NCBI GenBank assembly: GCA_963514005.1
Contig: OY740795.1
Span: forward strand, 992,001-1,056,000
Length of the DNA stretch: 64,000 bases
Reading direction: 5' to 3'
DNA from: Raja brachyura
Taxonomy: Eukaryota
Position 1 is the first letter of the stretch; each line of letters starts with the position of its first letter. The notes below the pieces were generated by a model. That model was not told the origin of the DNA, ran no database searches, and was given only the letters and a program-made list of their open reading frames with translations. Below, piece by piece: positions 4,841-62,937 of this stretch. Made by a program: the position numbers and the translations under genes.

Positions 4841-5757
4841 CTAACCTGGTGACGATTGTAATTCTCTCGCAAGGAAGATGCGGCCTCTCCAAATGCATCA
4901 CTCGCTACCTGGTGTTTATGGCGGCGGCGGATCTCCTGGTCATTGTCACTGCCGTTATCTTAAGCCGACTTCGGGTCATTTACTTCAACTCCAGTTTCCT
5001 GTCCACCACCCCGGCGTGCAGTGTCATTATTCTGCTCAGCTGGGTTACCAAAGACGCTTCCGTCTGGTTCACGGTCGCGTTCACCTTCGATCGGTTCATC
5101 GCCATTTGTTGCCAGAAAGTGAAGCTAAGATATTGTACAGAGAAAATCGCGGCGGTCGTCATTGGAGCCCTTTGCCTGCTCGGCATTGTGAAAAACGTCC
5201 CTCTGTATTTTAAATATGAGCCCCTCTACATCATGGATAGCGTATCTTGGTACTGCATCATAAGGGAGATCTATTATACTTCAGTTGCATGGAGATTCTG
5301 CGATTGGCTGCACCGCATTTTAAACCCATGTCTCCCGTTCGTTCTGATCTCCCTGCTCAACGCCTTCACTATCAAACATATCCTTGCCGCCAGCGCAGCC
5401 CGCAAGAGACTACGCTCTCAAAACCAGGGCGATAAACAAAGCGACCCGGAGATGGAGAGCAGGAGACGGTCTATCATTTTACTCATGGCGATCTCTGGCA
5501 CCTTTCTCCTGTTGAAACTGACCTACATTGTAAATTTCCTCTTCGTCCAATTTTCAAGCAAGATCTACGCCACCAACAATAATTCCTATGATCCAAAGTT
5601 TATTCTGCAGGAAAGCGGACACATGCTGGATCTTCTCTGTTCCTGCACCAACTCGTGTATCTATGCGGGGACGCAGACAAAATTTAGACAGCAGTTGAAG
5701 ATAGCGGTCACGTACCCTGTCAATGTAATGAGCAAATGTATCGGGGTGCGATCATAG
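4841..5757 (+). CDS. GPR139/GPR142-like class A GPCR, exon 2 (328 aa spliced product)
   Basis: Polypyrimidine tract and CCCCACAG acceptor at 4840. Uninterrupted frame with 7TM motifs: MAAADLLV, FTFDRFIAICC, PCLPF, SCTNSCIY..TQTKFR. TAG stop at 5755-5757. Confidence 0.92.
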
Positions 5758-11003: not shown

Positions 11004-11969
11004 CTTGGCACTGAAATTGGGAAAGGGTCTGAAGATATTAGGGAGGTCTGTGAAAGTGTTGCGGGAATGATTCGGGAGATTTGTGCATTACATATGCGAC
11101 CTTACAGGATAACGAGTTTTAAACTGATTCTTAAAACAAGCAATGGACCATTTAGCACCTTCAGATTAATCTACCAGACGTCAAACATTGCACGTCTCAT
11201 TTACGAAACAATATATTGTTATTAATTATTGCTTAAATAACGCACCCTATCTCAACTATCCGTTTAGATATCAATCGCATCTGCGGATGGAGGGATCTTC
11301 GTGAGGAAGCACGTTCGCAGCATTCCTTCATAAATATCCCAACTCCATTGCTAAGATGGTACCTAGACTCAGAAGATGCCAATTTAACGACTGCAGAGAC
11401 ACATATTATCCAACATGTGCGATTTCCAAATAAAGACTAGTGAACGTGTTTTTTGGTTGTCATCAACTATCGCAAGGTCACATTTACACAGGGATTTCAG
11501 TTTTCTATTGTAATGCATCTAAGTAGTATTGTTCTGCCGGGTGGACCCTGCCTAGACTAAAAAGCAAGTAATGCAAACATAATGCCACAGGACAGTTGGA
11601 ATTATTGAAAAATGATTAAAAAAACAAAGACATAGAGATCACGTAGATAAGTTATAAGTTTAAGAACGATATGGAGATTGTATGTGGCGGAGGTGCAAAA
11701 TGCCCAGGCGATGTTAAGTAATCATTATATAACAGCAGAATATAAAACAGTGGCATGTGTACTGAGGGTGACGAGTAACTATCCTGCCAGCAAACGTTCA
11801 AAAACCTAAATAATTCAGCACTAACCTCACAACGTGGCTGGAGCCGGAGGACAGGCGGGGGGATACGTCATGGACAATCGAGAAATATTGCTTACACCGT
11901 TTATTCCGGACATGACCAGCGGCCACACGATGTCTTTCCATGTGCCAATTTGAGTGAACCAGCCTCACC

Positions 11970-12079
11970 TTACATCATCCAGACACAAACCGTCATCAGG
12001 ACATTGAACGCAATGCTCTTAAGCAGGAGGATCCTCAAAGCCATCAACGTCAGAGAGATAGCATTCACTTTTGATACAT
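11970..12079 (-). CDS. TRDC: TCR alpha/delta-type connecting peptide/transmembrane exon (xVSKVNAISLTLMALRILLLKSIAFNVLMTVCVWMM*)
   Basis: Acceptor TTGTTACAG, phase 1. Contains the TM Arg and Lys at the TCR alpha/delta spacing (R....K), plus KVN..SLT and FN.LMT motifs. TAA is followed by a G|GTGAG donor, and an AATAAA lies at 11900-11905. Confidence 0.9.
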
Positions 12080-25065: not shown

Positions 25066-27837
25066 TCCAGCCATTCCAGAGTATAGAATGATCAGCATAT
25101 CATCCCGATATTTGTGTGGATACTGCCTCGGTTTACCACCCTACTTGTAAGGAGCTAAATAGTAATTCCGATAACAGATACATTGCTTGTCTCTTCTTCG
25201 GTTTAAACCAGCATCTGCAGTGCCTTCCTATACGTTTCAATGCGGATTTGCCAAAATGCACCAGGATTTTGCTAAAGTTAGAACAAATTGAGAGAATGTA
25301 CACAGTCATGTGAAGAATGCATGGGAACGTTGCAAAATTGAAAACACGGACCGAATTTCCAAAAATACTGGGAATTCGCAAAATGATGTTGATAGCTTAC
25401 GTTTAGCAGGGCGTTTTATCAAAATGTTTCCAGGAATAATATCAAAGAAAGGATAGACTAGGTGTGTTCTCATTGGACGGTAGTGAACTCGTAGGGGAGT
25501 ATAAGACTACTAGACCAAGTGCCGACCCGTTGGGTCTGGTCCCCGAACGTGCTTCAGTCGCGCAAATCGGCCGCGGGAGAACAAAATGGCGGCGTTTTTG
25601 GAGGAGAGCGGGCTGCAGCAGCTGCCGTTATGGTGTCTGGCCAACAGGAGGCCACAAAATGAGTGTGTGTGTGGGGGGGGGGGGGGGTGTGAAATGTGTA
25701 CATAAAAATGTCTAAATGTAATGAGGAGTGAATGGGTGAATGTAAAAGTGTACTGTGTGGCAAAATGGAAAATATCTCGGGGTTTGAAAGTGTGGTTTTA
25801 GCGAACCATGAAATCAAAGGGCAAATCTGACACACACACACAGAGAATGTTAATAGTATATAGATGAAAGGATAGATCAGGTTCATCGTCATAAGGTTTT
25901 TTTTCCAGAGACAGGGTAGCATGAAACTGGAGAGGATGGTTTTCGGGAGAGCTTTCTTTTCACACAGAGGGTGGTGGATATCTTCAACGAGTTGTCAGAG
26001 CAGCTGGTGGATGAAGATACGTTTACGACGTTTCAAGGGAATGCGGACAAATATTTTGAAAAGACGAGCAGAAGGAGATGGGGTCCTAAATAGGAGTATG
26101 TATCTAATTCCACTCTTCTCATGTAAGTTGAATTCAGACTTTCCCATTGACACTCGGTTATGCTCTTGTAATGTGTAGCCATTTTGAAACCAACATGCGA
26201 TCCGAAATGTTATGCAGTGAATAGGTTTCAGAACTGCACATTTCACGTTGAACTGTACCTGAGTGGCAATGATATTTTGAATTGGCCTCTGTAAATTGCC
26301 CCGAGTTTGTCGGGAGTGGGCGATTAAGTGGGATAACATGTAACTAGTGCGAACCGGTGTTCGATCGTCGGCGAGACTCGTCGGCCAAATGGCTGTTTCC
26401 ATACTGTATCTGTGAACCAGAGATGAGCGACTGTGTGTGTCACAGTGAGATCAGATAAAAGGATGAGGGAGAAATGCAAAATGTTGGGTTCACAGAGTGA
26501 AATGGAAGGGCGGGAGACATGTTAAGCATACTGTTTTATTCTGATGACATTGGCGGCATGGTTTCTGCTTGGGGTGCATATTTCAAACGTGTAAAAAGCG
26601 ACGGTATCGGAATTAAGTTCCGTTCTTTCCACCTGTTTCTGCGCCGGAGATACCCTGGCCTGAAGGGACGCGATATAGCGATCGTGATGGGGAACCCGTC
26701 AGCTGCGAGCAACCAGTATATTTCTGGGTTTGCCTTGGCGGGACCGGCTCCCTTCCGGCGGCAATGTCGACAGCGCTGTGCAGAAATGTGAAGCATGGGA
26801 GGATAGAGGCGACCCACCAGCGTGAACAGATGTACACAGGGCAAACGGTTAGAGACATCGCTGCAACAGCGGAACCCGTCGACTTATGGAGCTATCGAGC
26901 CATAGAGTGATACTGTGTGGAAACAGACCCTTCGGCCCAAGTCACACACTGGTCAAAATGTCCCAAGCAATGTCCACCAGCCTGCGCTTGGTCCATATCC
27001 CTCCAAACCTGTCCTATCCATGTACATGTCGAACTGTTTCTTAAACGTTGGGATAGTCCCTGCCTCAACTACCTCATCTGGCAGCTAGCTCTTTCCTCAC
27101 ACCCTCCACCCTTTACGTGAAAAGGTTACCCCACAGATTCCTATTCAATCTTTTCCGCCTCACCTTGAACCTATGTCCTCTAGTCCTGGATTCCCCTACT
27201 CTGGGCAAGAAACTCTGTGCATCTAGGTAGGATACATTGTGCATCTAGTGGGCTTGTGGGCGATGAACGCACTTCGCTCCATGAAAATGCGGGCCAGAGA
27301 CAAATAAATCGCCCAGCCGAGAGGTGGGAACGTATCACATCCGAAATAGCACCAGAGCCACTGTACATGCTCCCCATAACACATACACGTGTACGGAATT
27401 CTTGTTTCATACTCTCTATGTGGAAATTTGCGAACGTATTGGCGAATAATCCGGCAAATCAATAAACGACCCACTGCCTGCAGAAACCCACCTGGTCTAG
27501 AGTAAACAAGACATTTGACCCGGATAAAGAATAGTCGCCTGTGAGGATTTCATGGTCATTTTCTATTGCCATTTATTTTAACTTTGACTTTGAGAGCTCA
27601 GCGATTAACCCCAAACACTGATCCAACACCCGATATTCCCTCCAAAACAACTTTTAACAACTTCGCAAGAAATGCTCCCCTCGCAATTTTCACGTCCAAG
27701 CTAACATATCGCCAGGTAAGAACATACGACGTTGTACAGCACAGCGTGGGCGAGAGCCTTCCAGCACCCAATGTCCGTGCCGAATATAATGCCACGTTAA
27801 ACTAATCTCATCTGCCTACACATGATACATATTCCTT

Positions 27838-34719: not shown

Positions 34720-34758
34720 TATTTTTGAACGGGCCCTTCATCCGCTTTCCATACGGTG
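34720..34758 (-). other. 23-RSS of V segment 2
   Basis: CACCGTA-tggaaagcggatgaagggcccgt(23)-TCAAAAATA on minus. Confidence 0.85.
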
Positions 34759-35043
34759 CGACCCCGGCACAAATGTAGATGGCTTCATCGTTTGTGTCAA
34801 CGTCTCTAACAGTCAGGCCGCTGTACCTCAGGCTTTGATCGTACGTCGCCGATATTCTCCCGGCGCTCACATCACGGTGAAGCCCGGTCGTCAGCAGTTC
34901 CAGATGGCGAGCGTGGGAGAGGCGATACCACTGGAGAAAGCTCATAGATACATTGACGGTGCAGTTCAATACCAGTGACGATCTTTCCGCGGCGACATAT
35001 CTCGAGGGAGTTTGCGATATCTGGACAGTTTGGGCCATGACAT
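34759..35043 (-). CDS. V segment 2 exon, TCR alpha/delta-type V
   Basis: VMAQTVQISQTPSRYVAAERSSLVLNCTVNVSMSFLQWYRLSHARHLELLTTGLHRDVSAGRISATYDQSLRYSGLTVRDVDTNDEAIYICAG. Both Cys, the core Trp and D.A.Y.C are present. GCAG acceptor, phase 1, open frame. Confidence 0.85.
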
Positions 35044-40476: not shown

Positions 40477-40525
40477 ATGGAAATCGCTCCGTATCTCGTC
40501 GTCGTGGTGCTGTCTCGTGTATTCA
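40477..40525 (+). CDS. Leader exon of V3 (MEIAPYLVVVVLSRVF)
   Basis: GACATGG start, TTCA|GTGAGT donor in phase 1, in frame with the V3 exon. Confidence 0.85.
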
Positions 40526-41129
40526 GTGAGTCTCTCTCCTGTTTTCCGTTCCAACTGGATGTACGTTTAGAAAACGGGCAGAAAGTAAAGGGGCACGCGC
40601 AACATAAACACGGGCAGTGGAAAAGGGCAGATTTTGAACGTCAACATTTTAATTGTGAAAGGGCTCTCAGCTCGGGTCAAGAAACGTGGGAGGAATATTA
40701 ACCAAACAACGCAGAAAAAAAATCTATTAACTGGGCGAATTGGCGCAAGGAGGCATACAATCAATAACATTAATCGGAAGGGCAGTGAAACTAGTCATAC
40801 TACGGTGGGGGGGTCGGGGAGAGTGTGAAAGGAAGGGTTAGAGAAATCAATATTCATCGGCTTTGTAAGCCGTACAAGCGAAATATGAGGTTGTGTTCCT
40901 CCGATCGGGCCGCGCTCTGACAGCGGAGGAGGCTCAGGACAGAAATATCAGTGTGGAAATGGGAAGGGGAAGTTAAAGTTAGCAACCGGGAGATACAGGC
41001 CAGGGCGGGTAAAGATATCAGAGGTGTTTCTCCAATAATGCAACCGTCTCTGTCTCGTGTGTATCTTTGGTCTGGAGTGCTCCCTTCCGTAATGCACCCC
41101 CCTATTCTTCTCTCCCTTTCTCCTAACAG

Positions 41130-41427
41130 GAGCCGCATCGGTCATTGTGCTCGCCCAACCGGAATCTGCTGCTGTGCAGGTCGAAGGAGATGCGCGGTTC
41201 TCGTGCGAAATGACGGGGGGTTCCATCGACTCCTACGTCATGTATTGGTACCGCCAGCGTCCAGGGAAAGGACTGGAATGGACGACGAGATACTACGACT
41301 CTACCAATATCCAGTATGCTCCTGATGTTCAAGGCCGACAGGAGGCTACAAGCTCCCACTCGAACCTCTACTTGCATGTAAACACCATCCGGGTGGAGGA
41401 CGCTGCCGTGTATTACTGCGCTGCTCG
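41130..41427 (+). CDS. V segment 3 exon, IgH-like (TAILV/VH-delta-like)
   Basis: AAS-VIVLAQPESAAVQVEGDARFSCEMTGGSIDSYVMYWYRQRPGKGLEWTTRYYDSTNIQYAPDVQGRQEATSSHSNLYLHVNTIRVEDAAVYYCAAR. CTAACAG acceptor. Aligns without gaps to V1. Confidence 0.88.
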
Positions 41428-41466
41428 CACAGCCGTATAATCAGCGGCTGTGCTGGTGAGAAACAC
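41428..41466 (+). other. 23-RSS of V segment 3 (degenerate)
   Basis: CACAGCC-gtataatcagcggctgtgctggt(23)-GAGAAACAC; the spacer is homologous to the V1 spacer. Confidence 0.75.
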
Positions 41467-42189
41467 CAGTGCGCTGTAACTGCTGGGAAACCCCAGATCG
41501 AGAACAGACAACATCATTTTTCGCCATCAATAGCTCAAACTGTTGGAGCGCCAGCCGTCCCCTCTCACCAAAGGATCGCGTCGGCGCAGCAGCAGAAGTA
41601 ATCCGCCGCTCGGCCGCAGATCTACCCACTTATTAACTTATGAACCGCATATTTCCTTCGACCTGCACTTATGTTCATAAGTTCATTAATTATAGGGACA
41701 GAATTAGGCTACGCGGCCCATCGAGCCTACTCTGCCCTTCAGCCATGCCTGATCTAGCGCCCCCTCCTAACCCAATTCACCTGCCTTCTCCCCATAATCC
41801 TTGACAACCGTTCCTATCAATTGGCGGTCACTGGGTCATGGGGTACTCTACCACGAAACATGCCCTTCGGTCTACCCTGTCCATGCCCAAGAAGACGTTT
41901 AATCTTCGCAAATTCCAAGTTCCCGCACTTGGCCCATTTTCCTCTAAACCTTTCCTATACATGCTTGGACCAACTGTCTGTTAGTTGTAGGTTTCTAAGT
42001 CACATTCCTTCCCAGCAACTGGCAGTCAGCTCCTCTGGCTTTGCAATTGCCCATGGCGGAGGCCTATTCGGTCTGTCGCCCGTAAACACAGGGGCGACAC
42101 AATGGCGCGGCGCTTTCCACGCCGGGAGAGGCCATTCTGTTTGCAAATTCACTCAAATCTACACACTCGCAAGAAGCATATTTACTTCT

Positions 42190-58330: not shown

Positions 58331-59340
58331 CAAAGGATGTTGCCAGGACGAGAGGGTCTGGGCTATATGGAGAGGTTTAGGAGTAACTATATTCCTTGGA
58401 GCGCAGGAGGATGAGGGGTGATCATATAGAGGTGTATACAATAATGAGAGGAATAGATCGGGTAGATGCACAGCGCCTCTTGCCCAGAGTACGGGAATCG
58501 AGGACCAGAGGCCATCATCATCATCATCGGCGGTCACTCCAAACGAGTATGACTGTCCTCTCAAGGAGGATGCCTGTGCGTGACCTTGTGGGAAGACTGG
58601 TGCACAGACAGCCACCCCACGGTCCTTGGCAGATCTGGATCCAGAATCCAGTGGAATAAATCCAAGACGACCGGGGACCATTTTCTGCTGCAGCCTTCAT
58701 CCGCCTTCCCAGCCGATGTGATGATACCCCACTAAAGTCAGCCATCATCCTCCGCCTGTGCCAGGGGACATAGGTTTAAGGTGAAGGTGAAAATATTTTT
58801 AAAGTGTCTGAGGGTAGCTTTTTTACCCAAAGTGTGGCGGCTGTAGTTCCCGACCTGCCAGAGGAGGTAGTTAAGGCATGGACTATCCCAATGTTTCAGA
58901 AACAGTGGTTAGGATGAGTTGAGAGAGATATGGACCAAACGCGGGCAGATGGGACCAGTGTGTCGGGGAGATGTGGGCAGCCAAAAGGGCTGCTTTCACG
59001 ATGTATCACTCTGTGACTTCATTTGGATTGTGTCTGAGAATGTTCCTACCGGAAATTGTAGGCACAGCTGAGAAATCGATGGATGAATAAAATTGTTGGT
59101 GATGACTGGGCAATCGCATCGCACATGACCTAATCGAATGTTGGAACGTGCTCGGGACACAGCGTACTGTTGCTTCCCCGTTGTGCGCCCCTATTTCATT
59201 GATCGCACCACTGGTCAGTTGTCTTCACAACCCCCCCCCACCCCCCCCCCCCCCCCCCCCCCCTTCGCTCATGCGTACTACTCCAGGGTGTTTCCACTGC
59301 GCATGTGCTCATGTGAGTCTGTGGGCAGCTGCGAGGGAAG

Positions 59341-59419
59341 AGTTTTTGTATTGACATTTTTCACTGTGGGACTGGGTACGCACGGTAACTAAAATGCCCA
59401 GCGCCGCCGTACATGAACC
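59341..59419 (+). other. TRDD: TCR delta-type D segment 1 (coding 59369-59380 GGACTGGGTACG) with 12- and 23-RSS
   Basis: AGTTTTTGT-12-CACTGTG | D | CACGGTA-23-ACATGAACC. Confidence 0.92.
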
Positions 59420-60619
59420 TCCCTACTGCAGCGCATTGACATATCCGACACTTAAGTTCAAATTCCATGATAGGGCCTTAGGGAGTGTGGTAGAGCAGGG
59501 GGATCTGGGAATGCGGGTGCATGGTTCCTTGAAGTTGGAGTCGCAGATTGATAAGGTGGTCAAAAAGGCTTTTGGCTCATTAGCCTTCATCAGTATTGAA
59601 TATTGAATGTTGGGAGGTCATGTTGCACTTGTATTAGACGTTGGGGGGACGAATTTGGAGTATTGTATTATTGTAGGAAAGATATTGTCCAGCTGGAAAC
59701 TGTACACACACTATCTACGAGGATGTTGCCAGGACGAGAGGGTCTGGGCTATATGGAGAGGTTTAGGAGTAACTATATTCCTTGGAGCGCAGGAGGATGA
59801 GGGGTGATCTTATAGAGGTGTATACAATTATGAGAGGAATAGATCGGGTAGATGCATAGCGCCTCTTGCCCAGAGTACGGGAATCGAGGACCAGAGGCCA
59901 TCATCATCATCATCGGCAGGTCACTGCAAACGAGTATGACTGTCCTCTCAAGGAGGACGCCTGTGCGTGACCTTGTGGGGAGACTGGTGCACAGACAGCC
60001 ACCCCACGGTCCTTGACAGATCTGGATCCAGAATCCAGTGGAATAAATCCAAGACGACCGGGGACCATTTTCTGCTGCAGCCTTCATCCGCCTTCCCAGT
60101 CGATGTGATGACACTCCACTAAAGACAGCCATCATCCTCCGCCTGTGCCAGGGGACATAGGCTTAAGGTGAAGGAGAAAATATTTTTAAGGAATCTGAGG
60201 GTAGCTTTTTTAACCCAAAGGGTGGTGGCTGTAGTTAACGACCTGCCAGAGGAGGTAATTGAGGCAGGGACTGTCCCAATGTTTCAGAAACAGTGGTTAG
60301 GACAAGTTTAGAGAGATATGGACCAAACGCAGGCAGATGGGACCAGTGTGTCGGGGACATGTGGGCAGCCAAAAGGGCTGCTTTCACGATGTATCACTCT
60401 GTGACTTCATTTGGATTGTGTCTGAGAATGTTCCTACCGGAAATTGTAGGCACACCTAAGAAATCGATGGATGAATAAAATTGTTGATGTTGACTGGGCA
60501 ATCGCATCGAACATGACCTAATCGAATGTTGGAACGTGCTCGGGACACAGCGTACTGTTGCTTCCCCGTTGTGCGCCCCTATCTCATTGATCGCACCACC
60601 AGTCAGTTGTCTTCACAAA

Positions 60620-60650
<31 letters not shown>

Positions 60651-60733
60651 ACCTCTTTCGCTCATGCGTACTACTCCAGGGTGTTTCCACTGCGCATGTC
60701 CTCATGTGAGTCTGTGGGCAGCTGCGAGGGAAG

Positions 60734-60813
60734 AGTTTTTGTATTGACATTTTTCACTGTGGGACTGGGGTACGCACGGTGACTAAAATGCCCTACGCCG
60801 CCGTACATAAACC
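60734..60813 (+). other. TRDD: TCR delta-type D segment 2 (coding 60762-60774 GGACTGGGGTACG) with 12- and 23-RSS
   Basis: AGTTTTTGT-12-CACTGTG | D | CACGGTG-23-ACATAAACC. Confidence 0.93.
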
Positions 60814-61103
60814 TCCCTACTGCAGCGCATTGACATCTCCACCACTTCGGTTCCAATTCCGCTTGCAAGCGGAAACCTTGTGGTTTCCTACTCTTGTCCT
60901 CGCCCTGCACTGTTCCGGTTGCCTGGATATTGATGGGGTTTTTTTTCCCAGCGCTGACACGTTTCCGCCGGATGTATGCTTCCTTGCCTCCTCCACCCAT
61001 TGGTCGAATCCCCCTCTCGCGGGGGGGTTCACGTCTGGTTGCGTTGCCCGTCGCTCATGTGAAACGTTCTGGGAAGTTTCTCTGCGGTCAGCAGCGAGGT
61101 GGA

Positions 61104-61181
61104 GGTTTTTGTATTGCCTTGTATCACCGTGACTGGGATACGCACAGCAACTAAACTACTATGAGCGGCCGTACATTAACC
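61104..61181 (+). other. TRDD: TCR delta-type D segment 3 (coding 61132-61142 ACTGGGATACG) with 12- and 23-RSS
   Basis: GGTTTTTGT-12-CACCGTG | D | CACAGCA-23-ACATTAACC. Confidence 0.93.
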
Positions 61182-62857: not shown

Positions 62858-62885
62858 GGTTTTGTTGTGGGGGTTTAATGTAGTG
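62858..62885 (+). other. 12-RSS of the right J segment (degenerate heptamer)
   Basis: GGTTTTGTT-gtgggggtttaa(12)-TGTAGTG; the essential terminal GTG is retained. Confidence 0.75.
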
Positions 62886-62937
62886 CAAAGAGAAAAGTTA
62901 ATATTCGGCGCTGGGACTGAACTCAAGGTGCAACCAA
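62886..62937 (+). CDS. TRDJ: TCR delta-type J segment (QREKLIFGAGTELKVQP)
   Basis: KLIFG.GT motif, A|GTGAGT donor in phase 1, upstream 12-RSS, located downstream of three D segments. Confidence 0.9.

Follow-up and report, generated by a model that had tools for sequence, protein, structure and literature searches.

The three D segments in the window (the whole 64,000-nt stretch analyzed here, contig positions 992001-1056000) are very probably TRDD genes, lying in a canonical TRA/TRD locus of a cartilaginous fish (probably a skate), and a fourth copy of their 5′ signal probably represents a germline D-J join in an inverted cassette. For J18, the inverted J segment that carries this fourth signal, such a join is the most likely origin, judging from the flank that it shares with the D segments. 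The D trio by itself is a useful annotation of ordinary TRDD; novelty rests on the J-fused fourth D signal and on a second C-delta. Features are collected in Table 1, in which positions beyond the window end are given in extended window numbering.

Table 1. Segments, exons, and duplicated DNA of the skate TRA/TRD locus.
Feature	Position	Strand	Details
C-delta 2 TM exon	11969..12079	-	open, with R...K pair; N stretch just before
C-delta 2 Ig exon	15027..15335	-	in frame with J18; one in-frame TAA at 15231-15229
J18, inverted J	18520..18632	-	coding 18587-18522, TNAQKNGKLVFGSGTALYVKP, with donor; D-homologous 12-RSS and 5′ flank
V21, IgH-like	20934..21277	-	open frame; 23-RSS 20972-20934; inverted
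V34, divergent TCR-type V	34720..35043	-	23-RSS; inverted
V41, IgH-like	40477..41467	+	probable leader 40477-40525; V exon 41130-41427; RSS with 24-nt spacer or weak nonamer
Tandem duplication, ~1.39 kb, source of D1 and D2	58334..60860	+	copies 58334-59466 and 59720-60860
D-delta 1 (D1)	59341..59419	+	12-RSS 59341-59368; core 59369-59380, GGACTGGGTACG; 23-RSS 59381-59419
D-delta 2 (D2)	60734..60813	+	12-RSS 60734-60761; core 60762-60774, GGACTGGGGTACG; 23-RSS 60775-60813
D-delta 3 (D3)	61104..61181	+	12-RSS 61104-61131; core 61132-61142, ACTGGGATACG; 23-RSS 61143-61181
J-delta 1	62858..62937	+	12-RSS 62858-62885; coding 62886-62937, QREKLIFGAGTELKVQP; splice donor
J-delta 2-4	~67.0, 73.3, 74.7 kb (extended)		FGXG type, as J-delta 1
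C-delta 1 Ig exon	84672-84980 (extended); contig 1076672-1076980	+	downstream of J-delta
C-delta 1 hinge exon	~85.9 kb (extended)		
C-delta 1 TM exon	~87.1 kb (extended)		
J motifs	after C-delta 1, before C-alpha		91 motifs
C-alpha	~254.8 kb (extended)		

The locus reads V-D-J-C-delta-J-alpha-C-alpha, a tetrapod-like order without the teleost inversion: the D array lies 5′ of four J segments and C-delta, these lie 5′ of the 91 J motifs and a second C, and the interval from C-delta to the J-alpha array yielded no inverted V. That the RSS pairs sit between V segments on one side and J-delta, C-delta, J-alpha, and C-alpha on the other upholds the identification of the three segments as D-delta, made in an earlier, sequence-only reading of the window. 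Among single-stretch matches, the best relative of the C-delta 1 Ig exon is the named Leucoraja erinacea TRDC (54% identical), with which it clusters with tree support of 95/95. In PDB, the TM exon matches a TCR delta constant best and an alpha constant almost as well, such that this exon alone cannot separate delta from alpha; a word-index protein search with the C-delta exon returned no match. The RSSs of all four J-delta segments are weak (the J-delta 1 heptamer is CACTACA, and J-delta 2-4 have poor nonamers), unlike the near-consensus 5′ RSSs of the D segments and the RSS of J18. Between C-delta 1 and its Leucoraja counterpart, the Ig domain is 54-57% identical and the TM exon 85%, and the J segments are nearly identical; rapid change of the C-delta Ig domain within skates is possible. 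Further downstream, ~40 J-alpha segments, nearly identical and with 5′ ends that vary, form a block (contig ~1,163,000-1,200,000; window numbering 171-208 kb) that is a recent tandem expansion.

The sequence-only reading had described the three D segments as each bearing a 5′ 12-RSS and a 3′ 23-RSS, and both cores and signals were located. Every 5′ 12-RSS has 1 mismatch to the consensus, and the 3′ 23-RSSs of D1, D2, and D3 have 4, 2, and 4 mismatches, respectively, the best being that of D2. D-like RSS pairs occur only at these three places in the 64-kb window and in the 464 kb also scanned, and 200 order-1 Markov copies of the window contained 0 such pairs, compared with the 3 observed. By the 12/23 rule, this arrangement should permit D-D joins, as had been proposed. 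None of the three cores has a stop in any forward frame—that part of the earlier description stands, but it carries little weight, as ~60% of random 11-13-mers qualify (60-66% of the window's own 11-13-mers and 50-64% of core shuffles). A TGACTAA at the 23-RSS of D2, which we take to be an AP-1-like motif, was rejected as a D-specific mark, since a similar TGATTCA starts two V RSSs in the locus.

Because D1 and D2 lie within one tandem duplication, whose copies agree at 1083 of 1141 aligned columns, the array comprises two independent D lineages, not three. Separate contigs of sequencing run X1, which is possibly the assembly's own sample, cover D1 and D2 with zero differences, the D1 core and 3′ RSS lying inside one X1 contig (59347-59529, zero differences). 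Organism C has pieces on both D1 and D2, and organism B has two different contigs at the place of D2, corresponding to two copies or two alleles. The sequencing runs cover introns and repeats as genomic DNA would, and among the 15 joints listed none falls at a D or J end, all being in repeats or in the duplication. The D1/D2 duplication is thus probably real and common to relatives, bearing in mind that X1 may be the sample of the assembly itself.

Two IgH-like V segments, V41 and V21, were located upstream of the D array, as the sequence-only reading had supposed. They are 50% identical to each other; their best matches in the genome are IgH V segments at ~40% (35-40%), compared with 23-33% for local TCR V segments. 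Both cluster with IgH V, supported at 89/95 in a tree that retained 12 of 28 Ig loci after trimming, yet sit inside the TRA/TRD locus. No convincing leader candidate was found for V21, and a word-index protein search with V41 returned no match. Elsewhere among the V segments, a V34-like fragment at 26764-26880 (+ strand, 41% identical over 39 residues) is probably a V remnant, and an open frame at ~5,200-5,700 (+ strand) reads, in our estimation, like an orphan G-protein-coupled receptor.

In such a locus, RAG would join the D segments with V segments upstream, with one another, and with the four J-delta segments, with subsequent splicing to C-delta. Under the 12/23 rule, the V-D, D-D, and D-J joins would proceed by deletion for V segments on the + strand and by inversion for V21 and V34, and one D pool would serve conventional and IgH-like V segments alike, giving CDR3s of moderate length.

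The general features of this array have each already been described in other vertebrates. A 12/23 RSS arrangement on D-delta is reported for the duck (PMC5278385, in excerpt) and the platypus (PMC3457774, in excerpt), and D segments open in three frames are reported for salmonids (PMC8559430, in excerpt) and cattle (PMC2846910). Multi-D joins are known from cattle, in which the bovine TRDD1-5 contribute one to five D per CDR3 (PMC2846910), and VDDJ joins on an IgH-like V are known from the excerpted platypus account (PMC3457774). IgH-like V segments close to C-delta appear in the stingray, for which the excerpted Table S1 of PMC12227049 lists six before TRDC. The skate segments share with the TRDD of salmonids, cattle, duck, platypus, and human (D-delta2/3, PMC4144731) the same RSS layout, short G-rich cores open in three frames, the same place between V and J-delta/C-delta/J-alpha/C-alpha, and the capacity for multi-D joins. 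Salmonids, by the excerpted text of PMC8559430, also have three D segments (TRDD1-3), whereas two of the three skate segments derive from tandem duplication. The RUNX1 site that human D-delta2 carries at its coding/heptamer junction (PMC4144731) was not seen at the three skate D segments when these were read by eye. As in the elasmobranch TAILV or 'Ig-TCRd V' arrangement (PMC12227049, in excerpt), IgH-related V segments stand directly 5′ of D-J-C-delta; in the skate, however, only the two were found, and one of them is inverted, with its own J and C. Our literature search found no published description of skate D-delta cores, key nurse-shark locus papers lying outside the survey.

Resemblance of the cores to TRDD was assessed against 5 of 6 distinct salmonid TRDD (PMC8559430 Supplementary Data 8) and the human TRDD3 13-mer, with 7 of the 13 distinct IgH D cores of this genome as a control; the IgH D cores were taken from the 19 of 28 Ig loci yielding one and from one additional cluster. 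The human 13-mer, quoted in the sequence-only reading, occurs in a TCR-delta CDR3 primer (PMC4506578), and a CDR3 with most of it is labelled TRDD3 in the excerpted Table 1 of PMC9583675. For the D1-D3 cores, shuffle p-values were 0.0008-0.044 against salmonid TRDD and 0.0004-0.0098 against human TRDD3, a comparator picked for its resemblance; against the seven IgH D cores they were 0.13-0.72, i.e., at chance level. Put together, p was below 0.05 in 18/18 TRDD comparisons and 0/21 IgH D comparisons, these values being uncorrected over 39 comparisons of G-rich 8-14-mers. The cores thus fit salmonid and human TRDD better than IgH D, for IgH the reverse of an outcome that the sequence-only reading had named as contradicting it. 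The core closest to human TRDD3 is D3: TGGGATAC is common to it and trout D2/D3, and GGGATACG to it and the human segment. D3 of organism B, whose flanking DNA is ~96-97% identical, has three extra letters and one substitution at its 5′ end; only the 3′ G-tract-ATAC part therefore looks deeply conserved. The proposal of deep conservation of the D-delta core accordingly holds for this 3′ part, shared with human and salmonid segments, but not for the 5′ half of D3. The first seven letters of D3 in organism B (run X5; read by hand) equal those of the commonest IgH D1 core of this genome, the end of this D3 being TRDD-like; possible readings are chance, or an exchange between IgH and TRD D segments.

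Two explanations that would remove the D-delta ancestry of these cores can be weighed on this evidence. The likeness to TRDD3 could reflect chance or convergence of short G-rich cores: they measure only 11-13 nt, D1 and D2 count as one lineage, the human comparator was selected after the fact, and the 5′ end of D3 is altered in organism B, where it starts with the first seven letters of an IgH D1. We consider this unlikely, given that the independent salmonid set shares TGGGATAC with D3 and that the split between TRDD and IgH comparisons arises with shuffles that preserve G content. Inheritance of a G-tract followed by ATAC/TAC from a jawed-vertebrate ancestor is the likely reading of the motif comparison, and the D trio would then be one more data point for a D-delta core of ~8 nt persisting from cartilaginous fish to trout and human. 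Far less credible is the notion that the segments belong to IgH or TCR-beta, or that they arose as an artefact of assembly. RSS geometry alone does not decide against it, as IgH D1 of this genome also has 12 and 22/23 RSSs, and IgH clusters occur on the same contig ~0.5 Mb away (an arrangement that parallels the antigen receptor complex in the excerpted text of PMC12227049). Nevertheless, in place of the elasmobranch IGHD minicluster of V-D-D-J-C with a WGXG J and an Ig C, the downstream J segments are of FGXG type and C is TRDC-like; the D1-D3 cores differ from the seven IgH cores compared among the 13 distinct ones; and an artefact would have to coexist with the separate X1 contigs matching D1 and D2 (with the proviso on the origin of X1) and with the pieces on both in organism C. 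The position of the D array is not that of TRB. The idea is largely refuted by the locus position together with the expressed chain P0024 described below. Searches for TRBD gave no D in the contig stretch designated C4 (V, three J, and C; TCR-gamma-like, by inference) and neither D nor J in the stretch designated C8. Of two exons on short contigs that we take to be probable C-beta, one had no D or J in the 14 kb of its contig, and the other lies near its contig end.

Whether the adjacent IgH-like V segments are the main users of the D array, building long antibody-like multi-D loops as the sequence-only reading had imagined, bears on use and not on identity, and here the evidence includes an expressed chain. 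P0024, a 293-residue protein from a Logan contig, clusters with Leucoraja TRDC and reads in one frame as leader, V, YYCA-DWGT-RD-QREKLTFGAGTELKVQP, C-delta, and TM; this single continuous frame marks it as the product of a spliced, rearranged transcript. It is a single chain, known as protein only, from another species (C-delta 57% identical). DWGT equals D2 in frame 2, and the J matches J-delta 1 at 16/17 residues. The following RD would be encoded by D3 of organism B (differences read by hand) and is explained equally by N additions. This one chain of a related skate carries a D2-type peptide ahead of what appears to be the J-delta 1 orthologue; its RD is compatible with D3, and it contains nothing of D1. 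A word-index protein search with the 3′ part of P0024 matched only a Leucoraja protein. The V of P0024 is conventional, being 32-37% identical by tblastn to open local TCR alpha/delta-type V segments other than V34 and 24-29% to V41/V21, and its CDR3 has 13 residues.

In favor of long loops on an IgH-like V, V41 is the V nearest to the D segments, is open, has a probable leader, and groups with IgH V (the support quoted above is not starred); the RSS geometry permits VDDDJ; the RD after DWGT is compatible with a second D of the organism B type; and platypus VH-delta used both D segments in 8/11 CDR3s (PMC3457774, in excerpt). On the other hand, the three untrimmed D segments amount to just 36 nt, or 12 residues, so that the array allows long but not exceptional loops, and the sole chain found pairs a conventional V with its 13-residue CDR3. 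The RSS of V41 has 2 heptamer mismatches in addition to its 24-nt spacer or weak nonamer, and delta CDR3s of the nurse shark average 9.8 residues with a range of 4-27 (PMC5278385, in excerpt). The proposal of long multi-D CDR3s on an IgH-like V is not supported by present data, and a dedicated role of this kind appears improbable.

The J18 flank scores 66, 62, and 56 against the D flanks, compared with a mean of 21.8 (SD 3.8, maximum 37) for 95 J flanks; it is identical to a D flank at 36/45 positions, with other J segments reaching at most 29. Across 514 kb searched, J18 is the only place besides D1, D2, and D3 at which the D 5′ flank matches at E<0.01; between V21 and J18, no D 3′ flank occurs. 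J18 is single-copy by DNA search and is spanned by one contig in X1 and by one in organism B (runs X3 and X5 of a single sample), so this arrangement is germline: a 5′ RSS and flank of D type immediately adjoin the J coding sequence, and the D 3′ RSS is missing. Across J18, organism B differs at 24/481 letters; among the 21 listed, none lies within 18569-18643. Six changes fall in J18 (four synonymous, one K to I, and one at the last base; read by hand), and the donor GT is kept, which hints that J18 may be under constraint, the comparison being with one relative and the interval chosen afterwards.

These observations also admit a reading without any join, in which J18 is either an ancestral J that never split or a J with a D 5′ flank acquired via duplication or conversion. 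It is a serious contender, although we hold it to be the less probable one. No recognizable D core is found in the first 20 nt of J18, its heptamer-to-FGXG phenylalanine distance of 32 nt lies inside the 16-33 of other J segments, and J18 is as near to the flank of D3 as D2 is. The flank is nonetheless absent from 95/95 other J segments, and a single join accounts at once for the D-type sequence on the 5′ side, the absence of a 23-RSS, and the 11-nt extension of J18 beyond J-delta 1. Germline joins are, moreover, documented for Ig of sharks and skates (PMC2193156 and PMC5192425, both in excerpt), where likewise the signal of one segment stands directly before the coding sequence of the next; at J18 the join would instead be of TCR-delta D to J, as read from flank homology only. 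A RAG-made D-J join in germ cells, as known for shark Ig, would account for J18, and if this germline join is true, germline RAG activity extends from shark Ig to TCR.

J18 belongs to a cassette in the order V34, IgH-like V21, (D)J, and C-delta 2, all inverted. A genome search gave two C-delta-like exons and no more; C-delta 2 shares 41% identity with C-delta 1 and 52% with a C-delta-like model from Heptranchias. In a C-delta tree built without P0008 and P0024 and with no tetrapod rows, a clade of C-delta 1 and C-delta 2 excluding Leucoraja C-delta was rejected (p-AU 0.0105), placing the C-delta duplication before the split from Leucoraja; deeper placements had p-AU of 0.2-0.3. The Ig exon contains one TAA in this assembly, and the hinge exon was not found in the readable letters between the Ig and TM exons, an N stretch adjoining the latter. 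The C-delta 2 gene is likely dead in this genome, to judge from a TAA known from the assembly alone. The simplest account would be that D-J-C-delta was duplicated long ago and then inverted, with C lost later in the inverted cassette, after the germline join. The cassette may be intact in relatives; in organism B, the J18 signal and frame are kept. We advance only tentatively the suggestion that the skate cassette gives, or gave until recently, delta chains of antibody-like type with only one somatic junction, possibly from intact copies in relatives. Our literature search found no published second C-delta in cartilaginous fish, again with key nurse-shark locus papers outside the survey.

The order of the cassette recalls the inverted cluster of frogs. 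Frogs and birds possess a duplicated VH-delta-D-J-C-delta cluster, inverted in amphibians and proposed as a TCR-mu precursor (PMC3457774, in excerpt), and in the skate, too, the main J-C-delta unit is preceded upstream by a second, which has an IgH-like V and is inverted as in the frog. In contrast to that cluster, the skate unit is from a cartilaginous fish, its D is seemingly pre-joined to J, C-delta 2 contains a stop, and the hinge exon was not found. If the suggested antibody-like role is true, a VH-delta-D-J-C-delta duplicate would be as old as jawed vertebrates or would have been re-invented in cartilaginous fish; a skate cassette with an IgH-like V in frog orientation makes an earlier origin testable across shark and ray genomes. 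The cassette does not match NAR-TCR, in which a NAR V-D-J is spliced to a supporting V-delta that lacks a leader: the strand of J18 has the second C-delta, and no V, downstream of that segment, and a double-V splice for J18 was rejected on this ground.

Two further observations concern the same contig and the IgH loci. In seven IgH clusters (L075, L076, L077, L078, L079, L082, and L091), one or no D lies between V and J, and in L091 J follows directly after V; clusters of this kind may be germline-joined IgH genes. A NAR-TCR-like remnant lies ~175 kb upstream of the window (contig ~813,700-820,400; window numbering -178.3 to -171.6 kb). It consists of a truncated piece of a NAR-type V and, after it, two V segments; the first has 54-63% identity with the supporting V in NAR-TCR-like shark models, and the second is frameshifted.
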